A stretch of 64,000 nucleotides of DNA, taken from NCBI GenBank assembly GCA_963783375.1, contig CAWANH010000028.1:1280001-1344000 (forward strand). Reading direction: 5' to 3'. Shown here piece by piece: positions 1 to 10,053 of the stretch. The notes under the pieces were generated by a model. The model made no database searches. It worked only from the letters and a program-made list of their open reading frames with translations, and was not told where the DNA came from. The number at the start of each line of letters is the position of its first letter. The first letter of the stretch is position 1. A program made the position numbers and the translations under genes. The stretch comes from Candidatus Eiseniibacteriota bacterium (lineage in GTDB: Bacteria; Eisenbacteria; RBG-16-71-46; JABDJR01).

Positions 1-92
1 GTGGAGGGGACCGAGGCCTCGACCGGAACCACCGCGAATCCGATGCTGGTGACGAGGAGGAAGGAGGCGACGAGAGAACGATGGCGACGCAT
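1..92 (-). CDS. N-terminus of a secreted protein, running off the left edge of the window
   Basis: Minus-strand ATG at 92 preceded by an AGAAAGGA RBS. Reads MRRHRSLVASFLLVTSIGFAVVPVEASVPS, a typical Sec signal peptide. Not in the ORF track because it is truncated. Confidence 0.65.
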   Translation of the reverse strand, partial: MRRHRSLVASFLLVTSIGFAVVPVEASVPS

Positions 93-305
93 GATGAGGG
101 TTTCCTTTCTTCGTGCGGACGGAAGAAAGGACGGGTCGACGGTTCCGCCATGCATGGAGGATGCCGGGCCGGTGCGACGCCCACAGGCGGGTGACCGGTC
201 CGGCCGGAGGCGCGCGGGTGACGAGGCCTCGTCGCCGGGCGCACGGAATCCGGCGAAGGCGCCGGCGCCGCCGGTTCGGCGGACGTCGCCTCGTCGTGAG
301 AACGG

Positions 306-400
306 CGGGGGATCGAGCTTGCCGCCGGGGGACCGGATCGGCGCGGCCGCCGGCTCGTCCTGAATGGGCCGGGGGATTGAGCTTGCCGCCGGGGGACCGG
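306..400 (+). repeat. 31-bp direct repeat, two copies 64 bp apart, in a divergent intergenic region
   Basis: CGGGGGAT(C/T)GAGCTTGCCGCCGGGGGACCGG at 306-336 and 370-400, 30 of 31 positions identical. Confidence 0.85.
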
Positions 401-417
401 TGGTGTCTGATAGCGAC

Positions 418-1467
418 ATGATTCGACGTGTGGTCATCCCCGACTTCGGGGACGTGGACGTGCTCGAGGTGCGAAGCGGTCCGCCCCCGGCGCTCGAACC
501 GGGAACGGTGCGGGTGCGGGTGGCCGCGGCCGGGGTGAACTTCGCCGACCTGGTGATGCGGATGGGGCTCTACCCCGAGGCGCCCCCGCGCCCCTTCGTC
601 CCCGGCTACGAGGTGTCGGGGGTACTGACCGAGGTCTCCGAGGAGGCGGCGCGGGCCCGGCCGGAGTTGAAGCCCGGGCTCCGGGTGATCGCGGGGACCC
701 GGTTCGGCGGCTACGCGGAGGAGATCGTGACCCCACCGGGGAAGGTGTTTCCGCTCCCCGCGGACTGGTCCTTCGAGGAGGGGGCGGCCTTCCCGGTGAC
801 CTACATCACCGCGTGGTTCGCCCTGGTGGCCATGGCCCGGGTCCGGGCGGGGGACTACGTGCTGGTGCACGGGATCACCGGCGGGGTGGGCTCGGCCGCG
901 CTCCAGATCGCCCGGGCGGCGGGGGCGCACGTGGCCGGCACCTGCGGCGGGCCGGAGAAGGCGCGGATCGCCGAGAGCTGGGGCGCGGAGCGCGGGATCG
1001 ACTACCGGAGCGAGCACGTGCCCGCGGTGGTTCGCGCCTGGGCCCCCGACGGCGTGGACATCGTGCTGGAGTCCCGCGGGGGGAAGGGGCTTCGCGAGAG
1101 CCTGGCGTTGCCCAAGCCGACCGGGCGGGTGGTCACCTACGGGGTGAGCGAGATGGCCTCGGGGCGGAAGCGGAACTGGTTCACCGCTGCCCGCGCCCTC
1201 TGGCCGTTCCTGTGGATGAACCCCCTCAAGCTCATCCAGCGGAACCACGGACTCTTCGGCCTGAACGTGCTCGCGATGTGGGGGGAGGACACGGTGATGG
1301 ACTCGGCGATCGCCGGCTTGCGGGCGGGGGCGGAGTCCGGCGCCTACCGCCCCGTGCTCGACCGCACGTTTGCGTTGGCCGAGGCCCCGGCGGCGCACCG
1401 ATATCTGCACGAGCGGCGGAACCTGGGGAAGGTCGTGCTCACGACCGGGGTGGAGATGCCGGGCTGA
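418..1467 (+). CDS. MDR-family NAD(P)H:quinone oxidoreductase (VAT-1/Qor-like)
   Basis: AAGVNFADL..RMGLYP, VPGYEVSG, VLVHGITGGVGSAA and a C-terminal GKVVL. ATG at 418 preferred over 364. Confidence 0.9.
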   Translation: MIRRVVIPDFGDVDVLEVRSGPPPALEPGTVRVRVAAAGVNFADLVMRMGLYPEAPPRPFVPGYEVSGVLTEVSEEAARARPELKPGLRVIAGTRFGGYAEEIVTPPGKVFPLPADWSFEEGAAFPVTYITAWFALVAMARVRAGDYVLVHGITGGVGSAALQIARAAGAHVAGTCGGPEKARIAESWGAERGIDYRSEHVPAVVRAWAPDGVDIVLESRGGKGLRESLALPKPTGRVVTYGVSEMASGRKRNWFTAARALWPFLWMNPLKLIQRNHGLFGLNVLAMWGEDTVMDSAIAGLRAGAESGAYRPVLDRTFALAEAPAAHRYLHERRNLGKVVLTTGVEMPG

Positions 1468-1519
1468 GTCGGGTGTCGCAGTTCTTCGCCTCGCCGGAGC
1501 GCCGCGGCCGATCCACCGT

Positions 1520-1563
1520 GCATCCCCGGGATGCCTCGGCGCGGCGTTCACCCGGGGGAACGC
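1520..1563. repeat. Two CCCGGG-centred palindromes related to the 37.4-37.8 kb repeat unit
   Basis: GCATCCCCGGGATGC (1520-1534) and GCGTTCACCCGGGGGAACGC (1544-1563) in the intergenic gap. Confidence 0.55.
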
Positions 1564-1626
1564 TGGCCCCGGGCGGAGGAAGGTGAGTCCCGGGCCATTC
1601 CTCACGGTCCGCAACGAGGAGGATCC

Positions 1627-2559
1627 ATGCAGCACCCCGAACGCAACACTCCAGGCAGCCGCATGGCGGCGCAGGATCTCCCCGGCGACCGCGCGCCGGG
1701 GCACGAATCCCCCGGCGACACCCTCGCGGTGATCGGCGCCGGCACCATGGGCCACGGGATCGCCCACGTGGCCGCCCGAGCCGGCTACGCCGTCCGGCTA
1801 TACGACGTGGCCGGGGACGCCCTGGCCAAGGGCCTGAAGGCCATCGACGCCGACCTCCAGAAGGGGGTCGACAAGGGCAAGGTCTCTCCGGAGTCGCGGG
1901 CCGCCGCCCTGCACTGCATCCGGGGGGAACGGGATCTCGCCCGCGCGATCGACGGCGCGGACATCGTGATCGAGGCCGCCCCCGAGGATCTCGCCCTCAA
2001 GCGGCGCATCTTCGCCGACGTCGCCGCCCACGCCGCGCCCGGCGCGCTCCTGGCCACCAATACCTCCTCGCTCCCGGTGGGGGAGATCGCCGCCTCGGTT
2101 CCTCACCCTGAACGCGTGGCCGGGATGCACTTCTTCAACCCCGTCCATCTCATGCCGCTCCTTGAGATCGTCAGGGCCGAGGCGACCTCGGAAGCGACGA
2201 TCGCCCGCGCCGTCGACGCCGGCGCGCGAATGGAAAAGGAGTGCATTGTGGTCCGCGATGTCCCCGGCTTCGCCACCAGCCGGCTGGGCGTGGTGCTGGG
2301 CCTGGAAGCAATGCGGATGCTGGAGAGCGGCGTGGCCTCGGCCCCCGACATCGACAAGGCCATGACCCTGGGTTATCGCCATCCCCTGGGGCCGCTCCGG
2401 CTCACCGACCTGGTGGGTCTCGACGTGCGCCTGGCCATCGCGGAGCACCTTCACCGGGCGCTGGGCTCGGAGGCGTTCCGCCCCCCCGAGATCCTACGGA
2501 GCATGGTGGCCGAGGGACGGCTCGGGAAGAAGAGCGGCCGCGGGTTCTACGAGTGGTGA
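1627..2559 (+). CDS. 3-hydroxyacyl-CoA (3-hydroxybutyryl-CoA) dehydrogenase
   Basis: VIGAGTMGHGIA Rossmann motif, ATNTSSL, GMHFFNPV, GRLGKKSGRGFY. GAGGAGG RBS before ATG 1627. Confidence 0.93.
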   Translation: MQHPERNTPGSRMAAQDLPGDRAPGHESPGDTLAVIGAGTMGHGIAHVAARAGYAVRLYDVAGDALAKGLKAIDADLQKGVDKGKVSPESRAAALHCIRGERDLARAIDGADIVIEAAPEDLALKRRIFADVAAHAAPGALLATNTSSLPVGEIAASVPHPERVAGMHFFNPVHLMPLLEIVRAEATSEATIARAVDAGARMEKECIVVRDVPGFATSRLGVVLGLEAMRMLESGVASAPDIDKAMTLGYRHPLGPLRLTDLVGLDVRLAIAEHLHRALGSEAFRPPEILRSMVAEGRLGKKSGRGFYEW

Positions 2560-2731
2560 GCGGAAGGCGTCCCGCCTCGGCACGGGGTGGGTGAGGGGGG
2601 GAGAAACGGGCGCGGCGATCGCGGTGAAAACGGGTGGCGCCGGGCGGCGCAAAGCCCCGCGCAACCCGACTTCCCCGGTTCTCAGCCCCATCCTCCCGGC
2701 GTATCATCGGCCGGAGGAGAATCGTCACCGC

Positions 2732-4042
2732 ATGCTCAAGAACTACATCCTCGACACCAACGTGCTGCTCCACGACCCGGGATCCCTGGTCTCGTTCCAG
2801 GACAACACGGTCATCGTCCCGATCTACGTGATCGAGGAGGTCGATCACTTCAAGAAGGAGGCCTCGGAGCTGGGGCGGAACGCCCGCGAGGTCTCGCGCA
2901 TCCTCGACCGGTATCGCGCGGAGGGGAACCTCGCCCAGGGAGTGGATCTCCCCACCGGCGGCCGCCTTCGGGTGGTGATCGATCACGATTACCCGCTCGA
3001 GGCGATGAACGGAAGCCCATCCAAGGTGGACCACGCGCTTCTCTCCCTGGCGCTCAAGATCCGGGGGGAACGGGAGGGGGAGCTGCCGGTGATCCTGGTG
3101 ACCAAGGACACCAACCTCCGGATCAAGGCGGACGCTCTCGGCATCAAGGCCGAGGACTACGAGACCGGCCGGGTGGACCTGAACGAGCTTTATCGCGGTG
3201 CGGTGGACCTGACCCTGTCGCGCGAACAGGTGGAGGCGCTCCGCGCGGGGGAAACCCTGCCCGCGCCTCCCGGGGACTTCTACCCCAACGAGTACGCCTT
3301 GGCCCTCTCCGGCGGCGAGCCGGTGGTCTCGGCCCTGGCCCGCATCTCGGCCGACCTCGCCGGGCTCCAGCCGCTACACCTCCCCGACCGGCCGGTCCTG
3401 GGGCTGAAGCCCAAGAACAAGGAGCAGCACTTCGCTCTGGACGCGCTGCTGGACCCCGAGGTGAAGCTGGTGACCCTGATGGGAAAGGCGGGAACGGGGA
3501 AGACCATCCTGGCCATCGCCGCCGGACTCCAGCAGGTGGAGGAGCAGGGGACCTACGCGAGGCTCCTGGTATCGCGGCCGATCTTCCCCATGGGACGCGA
3601 CATCGGCTATCTCCCCGGCGAGGTCGAGGAGAAACTCAACCCCTGGATGCAACCGATCTACGACAACCTCGAGTTCATCCTCGAACGCCAGCGGGGGCGC
3701 AAGGGGTTCACGATCGGGAAGCTCCTGGCCGGCGGCACCATCGGCATCGAACCCATCACCTACATACGGGGAAGGAGCATTCCCGGGCAGTTCCTGATCG
3801 TGGACGAGGCGCAGAACCTCACCCCGCTCGAGGTGAAGACCATCATCACCCGCGTGGGCGAGGGGACGAAGATCGTGCTCACCGGCGATCCCTACCAGAT
3901 CGACAACCCTTACGTGGACGCCTCCTCCAACGGATTCAACTACCTGGTGCAGAAGTTCCGCCCCGAAGCCCTGGCCGCACACGTGGAGCTGGTCAAGGGG
4001 GAACGAAGCCTGCTCGCGGAACGCGCGTCGGACCTTCTCTGA
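2732..4042 (+). CDS. PhoH-family ATPase with N-terminal PIN nuclease domain (PhoH2/YlaK type)
   Basis: YILDTNVLLHDP PIN start, LVTKDTNLRIKA, Walker A GKAGTGKT, GYLPG, RGRSI, IVDEAQN, LTGDPYQID. GGAGGAG RBS. Confidence 0.95.
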   Translation: MLKNYILDTNVLLHDPGSLVSFQDNTVIVPIYVIEEVDHFKKEASELGRNAREVSRILDRYRAEGNLAQGVDLPTGGRLRVVIDHDYPLEAMNGSPSKVDHALLSLALKIRGEREGELPVILVTKDTNLRIKADALGIKAEDYETGRVDLNELYRGAVDLTLSREQVEALRAGETLPAPPGDFYPNEYALALSGGEPVVSALARISADLAGLQPLHLPDRPVLGLKPKNKEQHFALDALLDPEVKLVTLMGKAGTGKTILAIAAGLQQVEEQGTYARLLVSRPIFPMGRDIGYLPGEVEEKLNPWMQPIYDNLEFILERQRGRKGFTIGKLLAGGTIGIEPITYIRGRSIPGQFLIVDEAQNLTPLEVKTIITRVGEGTKIVLTGDPYQIDNPYVDASSNGFNYLVQKFRPEALAAHVELVKGERSLLAERASDLL

Positions 4043-4386
4043 GTTTCCCCCGGCGATCCGTGACCACGCTGATCGCTCCACGGGATCTCGCCATCCGCTC
4101 CGGAATTTCCCCCGCGACCCGTGCCGATGGTGATCGCTCCGCAACGCTCCAACCCCCACGTTGAGACTCTCCCCCGCGTCCTGGATGCGAGGCGGGACAA
4201 GGACTTCCGGTGATCTTGCCGTCTCCCGGCGATTCGCGGGAGCGCCGGTCAGGCCGCCAACGGCCCGCCGGACTTCTCAACAGACCCCCCGGCGGTTTCG
4301 CAAATTTTCCGCCGGCCTCCGAACCGACAAGCGCGCATGATGTTGGCTACCATGGGTAGGCGCGCGGCGAAAACCGGGAGGCGGGT

Positions 4387-4427
4387 TTCTCCACGACCCT
4401 TCCACACTTTCCACAGCCTTATGCACA
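4387..4427 (+). promoter_or_regulatory. Tandem DnaA-box-like 9-mers
   Basis: TTCTCCACG (4387), CCTTCCACA (4398), CTTTCCACA (4407) and TTATGCACA (4419, exact match to TTWTNCACA), all in the same orientation. TTCTCAACA also occurs at 4274. Confidence 0.45.
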
Positions 4428-4572
4428 CGGGCCGATGGGAGAAAACTCCAAGACACCATGCGGCTTGCGCCGGACGCTTCAATCGGGGCGCGAGATTCCG
4501 GTGCGTTCCGCCCGCAGGCGCCGATTGTTGAGCGCGTTCGGAAGCCATAATGCGCGCATGGAGCGAAACTTT

Positions 4573-4601
4573 TTGACCTGGCTCCGGACCCGCGTTACCT
4601 T
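4573..4601 (+). promoter_or_regulatory. sigma70-type promoter for the large ncRNA candidate
   Basis: TTGACC (4573-4578), 17-bp spacer, TACCTT (4596-4601). The predicted start near 4607-4608 coincides with the first base of the terminal closing stem. Confidence 0.7.
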
Positions 4602-4606
4602 GGGTT

Positions 4607-5520
4607 CGAGGGTCGTGATCGACCTGTCCGGCACCGACACCCGGCTTTGCCGGGACAAGGTGCAAGAACCCCAGGAGGGGCGGCGATCTCTGCGGAGAAA
4701 GCCAAGGACCTCCGCGGTGAAGACTCCGAAGGGTGCGCCGAGGCAGGCGGCTTGTCCGCCGACCGGAGCGAAGCCCATGGGAGGAGGCGCTCGTGAAGAG
4801 CGAGGCCGCCGCGGGGGGAGATGAACCCCTGGAGGGGAAGAAGCCCAAGGGAGGCACGAGCCGTCACGGCGCTTCGGCGCCGGCACGGCCACGGACTTCC
4901 ACGGAGACCAAACCCCGGAAGGCGGGCGAGGACACTGCTGAATCGAGCGCAGCAGGTCCGCTTGAGCCAACGTCAGGCGGGGAGGACCGAACCGAGAGGT
5001 CCGGACCATGCCGTGGAAGGGGAACCCTTCGAAGGGCGGAATCCCAGGAGCGTACCGGTCTGAAACACGGTCGGAAGGTTGCGGGAGGAACAAGGCGTCA
5101 GGAGGGTGCGAAACCCTGGAGACGCAGCGTACCCGGGCGAGGTAAACCCGGGGAAGTCGCTTCCCGCCTCCGGAAACGCTGTAGGGAGACAAACCCTGGT
5201 GAGGCGTGTGTCGCCGAGAGGCGGTGCGCGGCCCGGTTCGGTCAAACTCCGAAGGAGAGCGGAAGTCCAGGAGAGGCTCGCGACAACTTTCTCACGATGA
5301 CCGTCGCGACGGCGGGCACCGGAAGGCCTTCGGCGGGGCGTTAAAGCGACCCAGGTCCGAAGGAAGCGCGGAACCGATGACCGCGCTACGGATGCCCGAG
5401 GCAACCTCTGAAGGATGCGTAACTCCACGGGAGGAGGCGTTGTCGGGGTGACCCGGCTTCGCAGTCGATCCGGCGAGAAGTCTCAGAAGGGGAAACGGAC
5501 AGGCGGCGGCCCTCGTTTTT
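4607..5520 (+). ncRNA. Candidate ~910-nt highly structured modular non-coding RNA, family not recognised
   Basis: No credible ORF. 5' CGAGGGTCG (4607-4615) and CCTGTCCG (4623-4630) pair with 3' CGGCCCTCG (5507-5515) and CGGACAGG (5496-5503), then TTTTT (5516-5520). About nine repeated internal-loop helices, plus C(UUCG)G and GNRA-capped hairpins. Confidence 0.8.
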
Positions 5521-5825
5521 CTTGTAGCCAGCCCTCCCAGGGGGTCCGAAACCTCGGATCTCCGGCGCGAGGAGCCGGAAGCCGCCGCCAAGGTGCGCCG
5601 CCGACTCTCCCACCGCGCGGCGGCGCCGAGCGCGTCGCTCTCCCGGGTGCCGATCCGTCCTCAGGCACCCGTCTATCCGGTCCCGCCCGGATTTGCCGTC
5701 CGCGCTCCTCGCCCAACCGGCTCGGGCAACCGCCTGCCTGCTCGGCAGGGTCCCGAAACGCCCGCCGAGTCGTCGGCCTTTCCCCTCGGATCACTCCGGT
5801 CACCCCCCCCGCGTCAACGATCCGT

Positions 5826-6374
5826 TCAGCCTTCCCACTCCGGCAGCTCGCCCTCGGGGATCGCCCGCAGAAGTGGGTTCCCCCGGTCGCGCCCCGAGAG
5901 GATCGGCGCGTCGATTCCCCAGGGAACGCCCAGGTCGGGATCGTTCCACGCCACCCCCAGCTCGTCGTCGCCGTCGTAGTAGTTGTCCACCACGTAGGCC
6001 AGGGTGCAGTCGGTGAGGGCCAGGAAACCGTGGGCCACCCCCACCGGCACGAACACCCCCATCGGCTCCTGCTCGTCGAGGTCGATCACCTCCCGGCCCC
6101 CGCGGGTGGGGGAGCCGCGCCGGATGTCCACCAGGGCGATCCGGATCCGGCCGGCCATCGGCACCCAGTAATCGATCTGCCGCCGATGGTAGTGCAGGCC
6201 GCGCAGCACGCCCTCCCGCGAGTCGGATCGGTTGCCCTGGACGGCCTCCCAGTTCCGCTCCGGAAACCACTCCCGGCGGAAGGTTTCCAGGAAACGCCCG
6301 CGCTCGTCGGAGAACGGTTTCAGGACCGCGAACTTGACCCCGCGTATGCGGCTCGACTCCCGGATCTCGATCAT
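5826..6374 (-). CDS. rfbC: dTDP-4-dehydrorhamnose 3,5-epimerase
   Basis: FSDERGRFLE, GVLRGLHYH, VDIRRGSPT, VPVGVAHGFLAL, WNDPDLGVPW. GGAGGA RBS before ATG 6374. Confidence 0.92.
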   Translation of the reverse strand: MIEIRESSRIRGVKFAVLKPFSDERGRFLETFRREWFPERNWEAVQGNRSDSREGVLRGLHYHRRQIDYWVPMAGRIRIALVDIRRGSPTRGGREVIDLDEQEPMGVFVPVGVAHGFLALTDCTLAYVVDNYYDGDDELGVAWNDPDLGVPWGIDAPILSGRDRGNPLLRAIPEGELPEWEG

Positions 6375-6636
6375 GGTTTCCTCCGGCGCCTCGGCGCCGC
6401 CCCCCGCGGCCGCGCCAAGCCCCGACGCCCGGCCGCGGCCCCTGCGCCTCGACCGCGCCAATCTCTGCGGCCGGGGGCCGCGCCGGCCACCGCGGCTCGA
6501 TCGTGTCCGCCGATCCCTGGTACTCTTCAGGAAGGCCGTCACCCCCGCGCTCGCCCGGCGCCCGGCGCCGACGGCCTAACTTTCACTTGAGCAAGCCGTT
6601 ATCATAACAAAGACCGAAACCGCGAGGAGGCGTTCG

Positions 6637-6957
6637 ATGGCACGTTGGGTCGAGGTGGGCAAGGATGGGGATCTCGCCCCGGGAGAATTCAAGCTCGTGG
6701 AGGCGGGGGACCTGGAGCTGGCGCTCTTCAACGTGGAGGGAAAGCTCTGCTGCATCGAGGACCTCTGCACCCACGACGGGGGAAACCTGGTGGAGGGGGA
6801 CCTCGAGGGCCGGGTCGTGACCTGTCCCCGGCACGGGGCCACCTTCGACGTCTGCACCGGCGAGGCGCTGAGCCTCCCCGCGGTGGCCCCCACCCCGGTC
6901 CACGGGGTCCGGGTGCGGGACGGGGTGGTCGAGATCGAGGTCGAGGACGAGAATTGA
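6637..6957 (+). CDS. Rieske-type [2Fe-2S] ferredoxin
   Basis: CTH ... CPRHGATFD Rieske ligands, 106 aa, GAGGAGG RBS. Confidence 0.92.
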   Translation: MARWVEVGKDGDLAPGEFKLVEAGDLELALFNVEGKLCCIEDLCTHDGGNLVEGDLEGRVVTCPRHGATFDVCTGEALSLPAVAPTPVHGVRVRDGVVEIEVEDEN

Positions 6958-6986: not shown

Positions 6987-7892
6987 ATGGCAAGCCGCAA
7001 GCAACGACAGATCGCCCTCCTCAAGGTCCTGGCCGCGGCGGCCTGGGCGGACGGACGGCTGGACAACGAGGAAGTGAACCGCATCAAGGAGCTCATGCTG
7101 GCCTACGAGCTGGAGCCCGAGGAGATGCACGGGGTGCAGGCGCTCCTCGAGGCCCCGGTCTCCTACGCGCGGTGCGAGGAGCTGACCCGGGAACTCCTGG
7201 GCATGGTGAGCTCCAAGGGGGAGCGGGAGGTGGTGCTGGAGGAGGTGGAACGGATCTTCCGCGCCGACGGCCGGGTGGACGCCGACGAACGCGAGGTCCT
7301 GGAGGGGCTCAGGGGCGTCATGGACGCCATGAACTCGGTGGACCATTTCATGGGCCGCATCACCGGGGTCTTCCGCCGGGTGTTCGCGGGACGCGAAGCC
7401 GGGTCCTCGCCGGGCGAGCTGAGCGAGTACCTCAAGAACACCGTGCTCCTGCGTCTCGACGACCTCTCCCACGGAGCCTGGCGGGAGGGATTCGACGCCG
7501 AGAGCCTGAACCGGTACACCCTGTTCGGGGCGGTTCTGGGCCGGGTGGCCGACGTGGAGGACGGGGTCTCGGACGAGGAGCTGGCCAAGGTCCGCGCCAT
7601 CCTGGCCGAGCGCTTCGGGATCGAGCCGCCGCTCCTCGACTGGATCGCTCAGGCGGTGCGGGAGGCCGCGTCGGCCCGGATGGACCGCCAGGCGCTCCTG
7701 AGCGAGTACAACCGGATCGCCGACATGACCCAGCGGAAAGAGCTCCTGGACGCCGCCTTCGCGGTGGCCGCCGCCGACGGAACCGTCGGGAAGGCCGAGC
7801 TGGAGGAGCTCCGGCTCATCTCGAACTTCCTCTGGATCGATCGGCGCGACTTCGCCGACATCCGGCGGCCCTGGATGCGGTACGAGGGCTGA
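6987..7892 (+). CDS. TerB-family protein with repeated TerB-like domains
   Basis: Four (A/V)DGx(L/V)xxxE motifs: WADGRLDNEE, ADGRVDADE, EDGVSDEE, ADGTVGKAE. Confidence 0.8.
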   Translation: MASRKQRQIALLKVLAAAAWADGRLDNEEVNRIKELMLAYELEPEEMHGVQALLEAPVSYARCEELTRELLGMVSSKGEREVVLEEVERIFRADGRVDADEREVLEGLRGVMDAMNSVDHFMGRITGVFRRVFAGREAGSSPGELSEYLKNTVLLRLDDLSHGAWREGFDAESLNRYTLFGAVLGRVADVEDGVSDEELAKVRAILAERFGIEPPLLDWIAQAVREAASARMDRQALLSEYNRIADMTQRKELLDAAFAVAAADGTVGKAELEELRLISNFLWIDRRDFADIRRPWMRYEG

Positions 7893-7991: not shown

Positions 7992-8540
7992 CTACATGAA
8001 GACCCAGATCTGGGCCGCGCGGTCGCGGGCCACCCGCTCGGGCTCGAATTCGCCGCCCTCGGCGTACTTCGCCCCCAGGCCCTGGGTGGAGATCCGCTCC
8101 GCCGGAATCCCATGGCTCACCAGGTATTTCTTGGCCGCATCGGCCCGGGCCCGGGCGAGGCTCGCCGCGTTCCCCGCCTCGCCGCGGTTGTCGGTGAGGC
8201 CCACCGCGAGGACGTGCCAGCGGGTGTTCACCTTGAGCTCCCGGACCGCCTCGATGAGCGCTCCCTGGGCCTCCTGGTTCAGTGACGAGGATCCCTGGGG
8301 GAAGGTGACGGTCTTCAGAAGCTTCTGCACCTCGAGCCCGGAGGGGACCGCCGGAGCCTCGGAGTAGGTCCAGGTGGTGACCGGGGGGGGGATATCGGGT
8401 TTCGTGGGCCGGCCCCCGTAGATTTCCTGTCCCTGGCTCGTCATGGGCCGCGGTTCGTTCTTGGACTTGTAGAGATTGGCGCAGCCGCCGACCGACAGCG
8501 CGGTGATCGCCAGCCCGAGGCCGACCCGGACCGCCACCAC
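7992..8540 (-). CDS. OmpA-family peptidoglycan-binding lipoprotein (start uncertain)
   Basis: Lipobox-like SVGGC. OmpA C-domain: VTFPQGSSSL, VGLTDNRG, LARARADAAKKYL, GIPAERI. Confidence 0.8.
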   Translation of the reverse strand: MVAVRVGLGLAITALSVGGCANLYKSKNEPRPMTSQGQEIYGGRPTKPDIPPPVTTWTYSEAPAVPSGLEVQKLLKTVTFPQGSSSLNQEAQGALIEAVRELKVNTRWHVLAVGLTDNRGEAGNAASLARARADAAKKYLVSHGIPAERISTQGLGAKYAEGGEFEPERVARDRAAQIWVFM

Positions 8541-8552
8541 CGACCGCCTCGC

Positions 8553-8581
8553 TTGTCGCGGTGAGGCCTCGGCCGTAGAAT
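8553..8581 (+). promoter_or_regulatory. sigma70-type promoter upstream of the photolyase gene
   Basis: TTGTCG, 17-bp spacer, TAGAAT. Confidence 0.55.
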
Positions 8582-8619
8582 GGGGACTCTCTCCATCCCT
8601 CTTCCCGAATCGGACTCGC

Positions 8620-10053
8620 ATGATCGTTGATTCCAAGCGCATGGTTCCACTCCATTCCGGATCGATCCGTGGTGGACGCGACTTCGTACTCTATTGGATG
8701 CAAGTTCAACGCAGAGCCGAATCCAATGATGCCCTGAATTTCGCGGTCGAGCAAGCCGATGAGCTGGGGCTCCCGGTCCTGGTCTACGAGGGACTTCGCC
8801 ACGACTACCCCCATGCCTCCGACCGCATCCATAGCTTCGTGCTGGAGAATGCCCGCGGACTCCGTAAGCGCCTGCACGAAAAGGGGATGAGGCATGCGTT
8901 CTTCCTCGAGCGCAACCCCCGGGACCGGCGGAAGATCGTGAAAGGGCTTCTGGCCAGGGCCGCCCTGGTGGTGACCGACCACTACCCCGCCTTCATCGTC
9001 CCCGGGCAGAATCGCGCCCTGGCCCGTCTGGCCGAGGCGGCCGGGGTGCCCGCGGTGGCGGTGGATGCCTGCGGGGTGGTTCCCCTGGCCGAGTTTCCCA
9101 AGCGGGAGTACGCGGCCCGCACCCTCCGTCCCAAGCTCCAACGGCTCCTGCCGTTCTACCTGGTCCCGGTCGCCGATCCCCGGCCCCGCCGAAGCGGGCT
9201 CCGGATCGATCCGGGGTTCCGGGAGGAGGACTGGCGGGAATCGACCTCGGCGAAGGTGGCCTCGTGCGCGATCGACCATCGGGTCCCCCCGGTGAGCGCG
9301 CATGTTCCGGGTGGCCGCGCGGCCGCCCTCGCCCGCCTCGAAGCTTTCATCCACCGGGGACTCGACCGCTACGCCGACGCGTCCAACGACCCGGGCGTCG
9401 GCGCGACCTCGGGGCTCAGCCCCTACCTCCACTTCGGCATGATCTCGGCCCGGGAGGTGGCCCTCACCGTGCGGGCCGCCCGCCCCCGCGCCGACCGGAA
9501 CGTGGCCGCCTTCCTGGAGCAGCTCATCGTCCGCCGGGAGCTGGCGTTCAATTTCTGCGCCCGCGAGCCCCGCCACAACTCCCTCCGCGCGATTCCCGAC
9601 TGGGCGCGGCGCACCCTGGCCGAACACGACGGGGACGAGCGCGAGTTCCGCTACCGGCGGGCGGAGTTCGAGGCGGCGCGGACCCACGACGAGCTCTGGA
9701 ACGCCGGCCAGGACGAGATCCGGCTGACCGGGGTCATGCACAACTACGTGCGGATGCTCTGGGGGAAGAAGATCCTGGAGTGGTCGAAGAGCCACGCCGA
9801 GGCGCTCCGCATCATGACCCACCTCAACGACAAGTACGGCCTGGACGGGCGGGACCCCAACTCCTACACCGGTTTTCTCTGGTGCTTCGGGCTCCACGAC
9901 CGGGCCTGGGGGGAGAGGCCGGTCTACGGCAAGATCCGGAGCATGTCGTCGGCCTCCACCCGTCGGAAGGTGGACGCCGACGCCTACATTGCTAGAATCC
10001 GGTCGCTGGGGGCGAAACCGGCCCTCATGAACGCGAACCGGATCGAAGGATGA
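8620..10053 (+). CDS. phr: Deoxyribodipyrimidine photolyase, class II-like
   Basis: VLYWMQ..RAESNDAL, SGLSPYLHFG, THDELWNA.Q, MHNYVRMLWGKKILEW, LNDKYGLDGRDPNSY, HDRAWGERPVYGKIR. Confidence 0.92.
   Translation: MIVDSKRMVPLHSGSIRGGRDFVLYWMQVQRRAESNDALNFAVEQADELGLPVLVYEGLRHDYPHASDRIHSFVLENARGLRKRLHEKGMRHAFFLERNPRDRRKIVKGLLARAALVVTDHYPAFIVPGQNRALARLAEAAGVPAVAVDACGVVPLAEFPKREYAARTLRPKLQRLLPFYLVPVADPRPRRSGLRIDPGFREEDWRESTSAKVASCAIDHRVPPVSAHVPGGRAAALARLEAFIHRGLDRYADASNDPGVGATSGLSPYLHFGMISAREVALTVRAARPRADRNVAAFLEQLIVRRELAFNFCAREPRHNSLRAIPDWARRTLAEHDGDEREFRYRRAEFEAARTHDELWNAGQDEIRLTGVMHNYVRMLWGKKILEWSKSHAEALRIMTHLNDKYGLDGRDPNSYTGFLWCFGLHDRAWGERPVYGKIRSMSSASTRRKVDADAYIARIRSLGAKPALMNANRIEG

Follow-up and report, generated by a model that had tools for sequence, protein, structure and literature searches.

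The interval 4607-5520 on the plus strand of the window, the 64,000-nt stretch of Candidatus Eiseniibacteriota DNA analysed here, is a real and well-supported gene for a large structured noncoding RNA (ncRNA). We make this call because conservation is confined to the proposed RNA span, homologues carry compensatory changes, insertions and deletions break the reading frame, and contigs from RNA libraries cover the interval. Independent transcription of a large ncRNA outside Rfam, which an earlier note on this DNA had proposed, is likewise supported by covariation, span-limited conservation and the RNA-library contigs. The checks named in that note gave no Rfam match at the gathering score, compensatory changes among 79 homologues and RNA-library contigs over the interval 4607-5520. 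The note had mentioned the neighboring PIN-PhoH gene as a boundary only, and had overlooked both the link of the RNA to this gene (phoH2) and the repeated module from which the RNA is built.

The stop-to-stop gap between the PIN-PhoH gene (4042) and rfbC (5826) spans 1,783 nt. The claim that it holds no credible protein gene stood up: long GC-rich open frames are present, but none of the four tested has a Pfam match, and of 50 indels relative to four close homologues, 49 have lengths not divisible by 3. The four nearest full-length matches in a set of 61 related genomes are 74-82% identical to the window RNA, and three of them start at window positions 4596-4606 and stop at 5500-5518. The plus strand is purine-rich (59.8%), as had been noticed earlier, and the 914 nt of the gene fold with a minimum free energy (MFE) of -456.1 kcal/mol (z -6.88), a value equalled by none of 20 dinucleotide shuffles; the fold of the reverse strand reaches -414.2.

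The gene is bounded by a predicted promoter, a stem that pairs its two ends, and a T-tract. The -35/-10 pattern, the stem and the T-tract are all retained in ten aligned copies, and the stem sequence differs between families. Both the promoter and the end-to-end pairing followed by five T residues had been proposed before, and their coordinates proved correct. A promoter and terminator scanner at its threshold reported no promoter site, the predicted one included, and no hairpin terminator on the plus strand; the promoter is called because it is conserved among homologues, a looser version of the pattern matching upstream of the RNA in 13 of 18 loci. The closing stem was scored per sequence, since the ends are too poorly aligned for column covariation to be usable there. 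The pairing beats 200 of 200 shuffles in all nine genomic copies tested, and is better than all 30 shuffles in 14 of 66 short contigs.

Contigs from six salt-marsh RNA libraries, from six studies, cover the RNA interval, two of them nearly at full length (857 nt with 22 differences and 829 nt with 25 differences). These are assembled contigs, which carry no strand, start or level information, and missing cover of the flanks is not read as silence of the flanks. Several RNA-library contigs stop at 5496-5506 and a DNA-run contig continues to 5615, which hints weakly at the 3′ end. RNA runs have a summed contig depth of 60-6,700 and two DNA runs one of 2-28, but this quantity mixes many organisms and is no measure of expression.

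Table 1. Features of the RNA locus, in window coordinates.
Feature	Position	Strand	Remarks
PIN-PhoH (PhoH2) gene, 436 aa	2732..4042	+	Pfam PIN_4 and PhoH; ATG at 2732; candidate partner
DnaA-box-like 9-mers	4387..4427	+	4419-4427 (1 mismatch), 4407-4415 and 4387-4395 (2 mismatches)
Predicted sigma-70-type promoter TTGACC-N17-TACCTT	4573..4601	+	TTGACC 4573-4578, 17-nt spacer, TACCTT 4596-4601 (coordinates checked); kept in alignment A1 of ten copies
Large structured ncRNA gene	4607..5520	+	About 910 nt; single copy in genome; fold, homologues, covariation, RNA-library contigs
Closing stem P1	4607..5515	+	4607-4630 pairs with 5496-5515; 9/9 copies; sequence varies between families
Arm I	4669..4836	+	M1 (4669-4679/4826-4836) encloses M2 (4724-4734/4773-4783)
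Arm II	4844..5036	+	M3 (4844-4854/5026-5036), helix 4896-4906/5009-5019, M4 (4913-4924/4971-4982)
Arm III	5042..5187	+	M5 (5042-5052/5177-5187), helix 5077-5087/5161-5171, M6 (5095-5107/5113-5125); most conserved arm
Arm III hairpin	5055-5074	+	Loop UGAAACA
Arm IV, outer part	5194..5491	+	M7 (5194-5205/5480-5491, degenerate in window), M8 (5247-5257/5423-5433)
Arm IV, inner part	M9 (5265-5275/5406-5416), M10 (5327-5335/5355-5363), hairpin 5366-5386	+	M10 degenerate in window
T-tract, likely 3′ end	5516..5520	+	TTTTT directly 3′ of closing stem
rfbC (dTDP-4-dehydrorhamnose 3,5-epimerase)	5826..6374	-	Convergent neighbor, outside the system

The repeated module, present in about ten copies per RNA, consists of an unpaired AA, four base pairs, a 3x3 internal loop 5′-ANG-3′/5′-GRA-3′, and four further base pairs. 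Tallied over about 770 aligned copies of the loop, G·G forms one end pair in 711, and at the opposite end A·A occurs in 607, G·G in 107 and G·A in 15. The middle position is unconstrained (G 247, A 232, T 192), and the two positions of the unpaired AA 5′ of the ANG strand are A in 591 and 633 instances. A strict test accepts seven modules in the window RNA and seven to nine in most homologues. A finder that uses no alignment likewise reports seven in the window RNA, with none on the other strand and a shuffle mean of 0.21; elsewhere on the contig, a single tile of 3,400 reaches four, the maximum there. Kink-turns carry a 3-nt bulge followed by tandem G·A/A·G pairs, and an array of kink-turns was rejected, as the loop is symmetric, with G·G and A·A/G·G pairs and G·A in 15 of 770. 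The non-canonical purine pairs of the purine-rich loop of the HIV RRE and of bacterial loop E reshape the groove for protein binding. Both show the same interchange of G·G and A·A as the module but differ in sequence and register; the likeness is an analogy of motifs only and implies no homology.

The alignment used to assess covariation has 79 non-redundant sequences, with a mean identity of 55% and an effective number of 60; they were obtained from 95 candidates by removing eight that were odd, partial or very divergent and eight that were redundant; another 40 metagenome loci of 625 nt were scored with the model and left out of the alignment. With a conservative null drawn from 20 simulations along the tree, 11 column pairs pass the threshold of E<=0.05, and all 11 are of Watson-Crick type. 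Arm IV holds eight of them, and the pair 4732-4775 in arm I is another. In arm III, 93.9% of cells are paired, a value reached by none of 500 shuffles and compared with 33-47% for slid controls, and both sides have changed in 29 of 41 pairs. In alignment A4 the pair count, which is weaker for arm IV, is low at four of seven helices (71% paired versus 61.6% for the slid -1 control), because the window row is displaced by one column there. The M9 stem pairs are 99-100% paired in a separate alignment. M10 passes the strict module test in 3 of 76 sequences because its register came from the degenerate window copy, and its loop pairs are retained. Part of the invariance of M6 is a selection artefact, since M6 served as a search pattern.

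A fold constrained by 107 supported pairs contains no crossings and consists of four arms that meet at a single junction, together with the closing stem and a 5′ hairpin (Table 1); a plain MFE prediction recovers 70 of the 107. Each arm opens with a module (M1, M3, M5, M7) and carries one to three more, M1 having one A·C mismatch in the window. The long-range pairing CTTCCACGG/CCGTGGAAG, which had been reported earlier, was found in place (4896-4904 with 5011-5019). Four hairpins listed in the same note (4868-4881, 4991-5000, 5212-5223 and 4640-4654) are indeed present, but they are peripheral and variable and do not belong to the conserved core. The hairpins at 5055-5074 and 5366-5386 may make tertiary contacts. 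We take the conserved loop of the former (UGAAACA) to be T-loop-like, and in a Planctomycetota-type subgroup this hairpin is swapped for a short loop; the latter has the conserved loop AACCNAU. A candidate loop-loop pair 5065-5378 falls below the tree-aware threshold in the 79-sequence alignment. Arm IV is matched weakly (E 0.005) by the covariance model built on arm III, hinting at an internal duplication. An SRP-like stretch at 5351-5375 was rejected because it is not conserved.

Homologues were found in Eisenbacteria, Myxococcales and their kin, Planctomycetota and one Acidobacteriota genome, mostly with lengths of 0.9-1.25 kb and up to about 2.7 kb. An exact 26-letter pattern occurs in 14 genomes, which include Candidatus Eisenbacteria (seven), Myxococcales, Deltaproteobacteria, Acidobacteriota and Planctomycetota. 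With the arm III covariance model, the RNA was detected in 8 of 150 genomes of the window's phylum, 30 of 151 of the phylum of the Myxococcales record (hereafter the Myxococcota group; a few matches are weak), 16 of 17 of one Planctomycetota class, and 1 of 150 sampled Acidobacteriota, with one strong and one marginal match among 14 genomes of one further phylum. The count for the window's phylum is 10 in a set of 206 genomes. The large genome searches used strict filters, so these counts are lower bounds. A pattern scan of JGI metagenomes gave at least 120 exact matches; among the metagenome loci listed, 66 of 80 are whole contigs shorter than 1.3 kb (median 1,139 nt), about the length of the RNA.

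Some genomes carry two to six diverged copies. One of them (G217, L245-L250) has six model matches, of which four dispersed copies are 75-80% identical, and each copy has its own promoter-like site and different flanks. In another (G342; L264-L266 on C46, C5 and C95), each of three paralogues is about 2.7 kb long and contains a hairpin-rich insert of about 1.4 kb, and in these inserts CUUCGG hairpins number 7-9 on the sense strand versus 0-1 on the other, with local fold z values down to -6.4. Inserts of about 0.8 kb occupy a similar place in a third genome (G248; L272, L273). A shorter natural version (G008; L037/L014), which apparently lacks arm I but has its own promoter-like site and closing stem, is a candidate minimal construct. 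The downstream neighbors of the RNA vary widely among homologues. Some neighbors are specific to a lineage: PTS IIA or a MoxR-type ATPase is encoded beside the RNA in the Planctomycetota class (L230-L243), and a convergent queG adjoins four Myxococcota-group loci (L210-L213). A plasmid blastn search returned one 34-nt chance match and no homologue, and viral scans with exact patterns of limited reach returned zero and one match, the one being no homologue.

In 11 genomes, the window's included, and on one metagenome contig, the phoH2 gene precedes the RNA on the same strand; the 11 genomes represent three lineages and comprise nine of the window's phylum, one Acidobacteriota genome and one of the further phylum. 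Of 206 genomes of the window's phylum, 15 encode PIN_4 and 10 carry the RNA, with both present in nine. In nine of these ten RNA-bearing genomes phoH2 is upstream within about 1 kb, and in the tenth (85% complete) the contig ends upstream of the RNA. As for the six other PIN_4 genomes, two show contig ends after phoH2, one of them with an RNA 3′ end on another contig, one has a 75-nt remnant, and three are without the RNA. The sole RNA-bearing Acidobacteriota genome among 150 and the strong match of the further phylum both have phoH2 directly upstream. The adjacent pairs within one phylum may reflect a single inherited event.

In the Myxococcota group, PhoH2 is encoded in all 30 RNA-bearing genomes versus 85 of 121 without the RNA, a comparison among kin that are not independent; phoH2 is within about 1.5 kb of the core at none of the 30 loci, and some genomes have two to six RNA copies per one phoH2. 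No phoH2 adjacency was seen at 16 Planctomycetota loci. Full-length PhoH2 was found in 3 of 17 genomes of that class, one of them the RNA-negative genome, and 14 of the 16 RNA-bearing genomes show only a PIN-less PhoH with the same protein query; no PIN_4 was found in genome G380. PhoH2 also often occurs without the RNA, as in the 85 Myxococcota-group genomes and in genomes G005, G073 and G004. We conclude that the genetic link between the RNA and phoH2 is real but not obligatory; because related genomes are not independent, Fisher test values exaggerate its strength. The remnant in G004 (C1, about 1223030-1223150; L260) retains the promoter, closing stem and T-tract and has lost all modules; a membrane-protein-like ORF separates it from phoH2, and DnaA-box-like words remain upstream. 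In the viral collection, 42 contigs (L282-L323), many longer than 100 kb, encode PIN-PhoH relatives of 36-58% identity, 41 of them near full length, and none of the 42 phoH2 loci carries the RNA by model or module count.

PhoH2 has been described as a hexamer that acts as an ATP-dependent helicase and RNase, with a preference for duplexes bearing an overhang; such proteins occur widely, and their biological role is still poorly defined (PMC7390352). We give nearly even credence to a mechanism in which the RNA, as a multivalent scaffold or decoy, engages the PhoH2 ring and restrains its RNase activity. The four-armed hub would present its approximately ten copies of the purine-rich internal-loop module, each module, of one helical turn, probably serving as a docking site for one protein subunit. 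The ring-forming helicase-nuclease encoded upstream would be bound by the RNA and its RNase restrained. With its ends paired, an abundant RNA of this kind would offer the helicase no free end and would be bound rather than destroyed. Such multivalent recognition fits because ten one-turn, non-canonical loops are combined with a free periphery, but ten modules do not match six PhoH2 subunits. In the Planctomycetota class, where PhoH2 is lacking, the partner would be another protein, for example its PIN-less PhoH.

The proposed mechanism may also have a regulatory layer, since 9-mers upstream of the promoter and of homologues resemble what we take to be the DnaA-box consensus. Words with no more than one mismatch occur within 300 nt upstream of the promoter at 12 of 17 loci, five of which have estimated promoter positions; they also precede the RNA at 10 of 12 loci in Planctomycetota and 7 of 26 in the Myxococcota group. 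Among the controls, none of 39 downstream windows had such a word, and 4 of 376 sites matching the promoter pattern in the genome did. From these words we infer DnaA control of RNA synthesis, and the boxes would likely couple synthesis to the replication state. An origin of replication at this locus was rejected, with dnaA and the densest box cluster lying 0.5 Mb away.

Alternatively, the modules could be sites of RNA-RNA docking, in which the AA of one module packs into a second module, at its loop or its flanking pairs, to give a self-folded pseudo-symmetric particle or a homo-oligomeric cage, with PhoH2 at most an unfolding or turnover enzyme. The conserved unpaired AA before the ANG strand, the radiation of four modules from one junction over short linkers, the tolerance of long variable inserts and the ability of half-modules to pair with other partners would all be accommodated, and A-minor contacts build the GOLLD and ROOL cages (PMC12286853). 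The persistence of the RNA where PhoH2 is missing also favors this idea. Nevertheless, we consider it unlikely, as no kissing-loop or pseudoknot pair exceeds the tree-aware threshold, pattern scans found no phage copy, unlike GOLLD and ROOL, and the adjacency of phoH2 in three lineages would be left unexplained. Less probable still is a role as a multivalent sponge for some other RNA-binding protein that is widely conserved, with phoH2 as a co-regulated travelling neighbor. Planctomycetota copies without PhoH2 retain the core, unrelated genes adjoin the RNA elsewhere (queG, PTS IIA, MoxR ATPase and others) and some genomes have up to six RNA copies, yet phoH2 is the sole neighbor that recurs across phyla, and no candidate protein was found, CsrA being excluded in the genomes tested.

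A CsrA sponge proper, a mobile element or intron, and an unannotated protein gene are largely refuted, and together we regard them as the least probable explanations. In CsrB/RsmZ sponges, GGA motifs in hairpin loops bind CsrA. The window RNA is similar in having many copies of a short motif in one molecule, suggesting multivalent protein binding, and it contains 42 GGA words; but its motif is an internal loop that arises from pairing between distant segments, and the free middle base of the loop means that GGA is not kept. Moreover, CsrA was found in none of the five RNA-bearing genomes tested, with a control positive in 3 of 14. Dispersed paralogues in some genomes might suggest a mobile element, but they are 75-80% identical with promoter-like sites of their own, and no adjacent transposase or reverse transcriptase was seen. 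There is no Rfam intron match, and the long open frames that could suggest a protein gene are broken by nearly all of the indels described above. A store of phosphate or nucleotides, or a dedicated substrate, that PhoH2 would unwind and degrade on starvation is very improbable. This proposal could draw on the link of PhoH2 to phosphate limitation in Corynebacterium (PMC7390352), the high contig depth in sediment RNA libraries and the ability of the RNA to increase in bulk by 1.4 kb. However, ten near-invariant non-canonical loops would be needless for a store, and in G004 the RNA gene is reduced to a remnant with phoH2 retained.

The window and 12 diverse homologue loci have no Rfam match at the gathering score, and by E-value the best hits (E 0.11) are to unrelated families at chance level. 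The earlier view that the RNA cannot be assigned to rRNA, tmRNA, RNase P, SRP, 6S or an intron holds, as neither Rfam (group I and II introns included) nor ARAGORN gave a match to any of these, and the covariance models of GOLLD, ROOL, OLE, MISL, HEARO and raiA gave none at the gathering score. The suggestion of an undescribed class stands insofar as the RNA is outside Rfam, but a preprint (COMPASS, October 2026; bioRxiv 10.64898/2026.10.21.760802) has already nominated long structured ncRNAs beside PhoH2 genes. Its text reports 14 clusters on the 5′ side and 13 on the 3′ side of phoH2, the lead cluster (#1,412,455) being a 357-nt motif in a Bacteroidota-enriched subtree. As far as the preprint text goes, the window RNA resembles these RNAs in being structured, transcribed, without an Rfam match and adjacent to PIN_4-PhoH at part of its loci; the features of that type present here are covariation, absence of a known-family annotation and recurrent PIN_4-PhoH adjacency. 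Neither Eisenbacteria nor any name with Myxococc- or Planctomyc- appears in the text, as distinct from the figures, nor does an internal loop; a repeated module, DnaA boxes and a length of 0.9-2.7 kb, all seen in the family described here, are likewise absent from it. Our family may be one of the COMPASS 3′-side clusters; it belongs to a kind of RNA only recently nominated, and its architecture is absent from the preprint text. The supplementary motifs of PMC5737381 may include a relative, and most of its motifs are expected to be in Rfam. Our literature search, which lay mostly outside subscription journals, found no description of the module, or of the RNA in these taxa.

The window RNA shares with GOLLD, ROOL, OLE, raiA and MISL its length, a multi-junction and covarying structure, a transcript of its own and an open function, but differs from them in being built from one repeated module and in having no Rfam match. 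GOLLD and ROOL are often found in prophages and near tRNA genes. In contrast, no tRNA gene was found in the window, and the viral and plasmid scans that were run contained no homologue. Type III toxin-antitoxin RNAs such as ToxI consist of tandem repeats located upstream of, and co-transcribed with, an RNase gene. The likeness is that repeated RNA units are encoded beside an RNase that they could restrain; the window RNA, however, lies downstream with a promoter of its own and has nested rather than tandem units, RNA contigs of 829-857 nt exist, and the RNA and phoH2 each occur alone.

Only a handful of bacterial RNAs this large are known, and the recent examples GOLLD, ROOL and OLE turned out to have unexpected structures. 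On the unlikely side, in our estimation, is the most far-reaching form of the proposal: a new class of giant RNA (0.9-2.7 kb) with an uncatalogued module and DnaA control, forming an RNA-gated PhoH2/PhoH helicase-nuclease machine and absent from the preprint clusters. If true, such a ribonucleoprotein machine would supply the missing RNA partner of PhoH-family proteins, and an RNA of 0.9-2.7 kb would rank among the longest outside the ribosome. A dedicated RNA partner would make the question of the role of PhoH2 testable, and because one motif sets the design of the RNA, a module of about 30 nt can be directly tested for binding and its structure solved. The family is common in environmental assemblies, as seen in the at least 120 metagenome matches, and unannotated, so its members have probably been miscalled as hypothetical proteins or discarded.

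Three further observations concern the surroundings of the RNA gene. Directly 3′ of the phoH2 stop codon, at window positions 4045-4140, are two 35-nt direct repeats that are 80% identical and 61 nt apart, and the first 40 nt are weakly retained in three relatives. A protein with a double TerB domain is encoded at 6987-7892 on the plus strand, and an ORF at 8476-10053 on the minus strand resembles DNA photolyase by eye.
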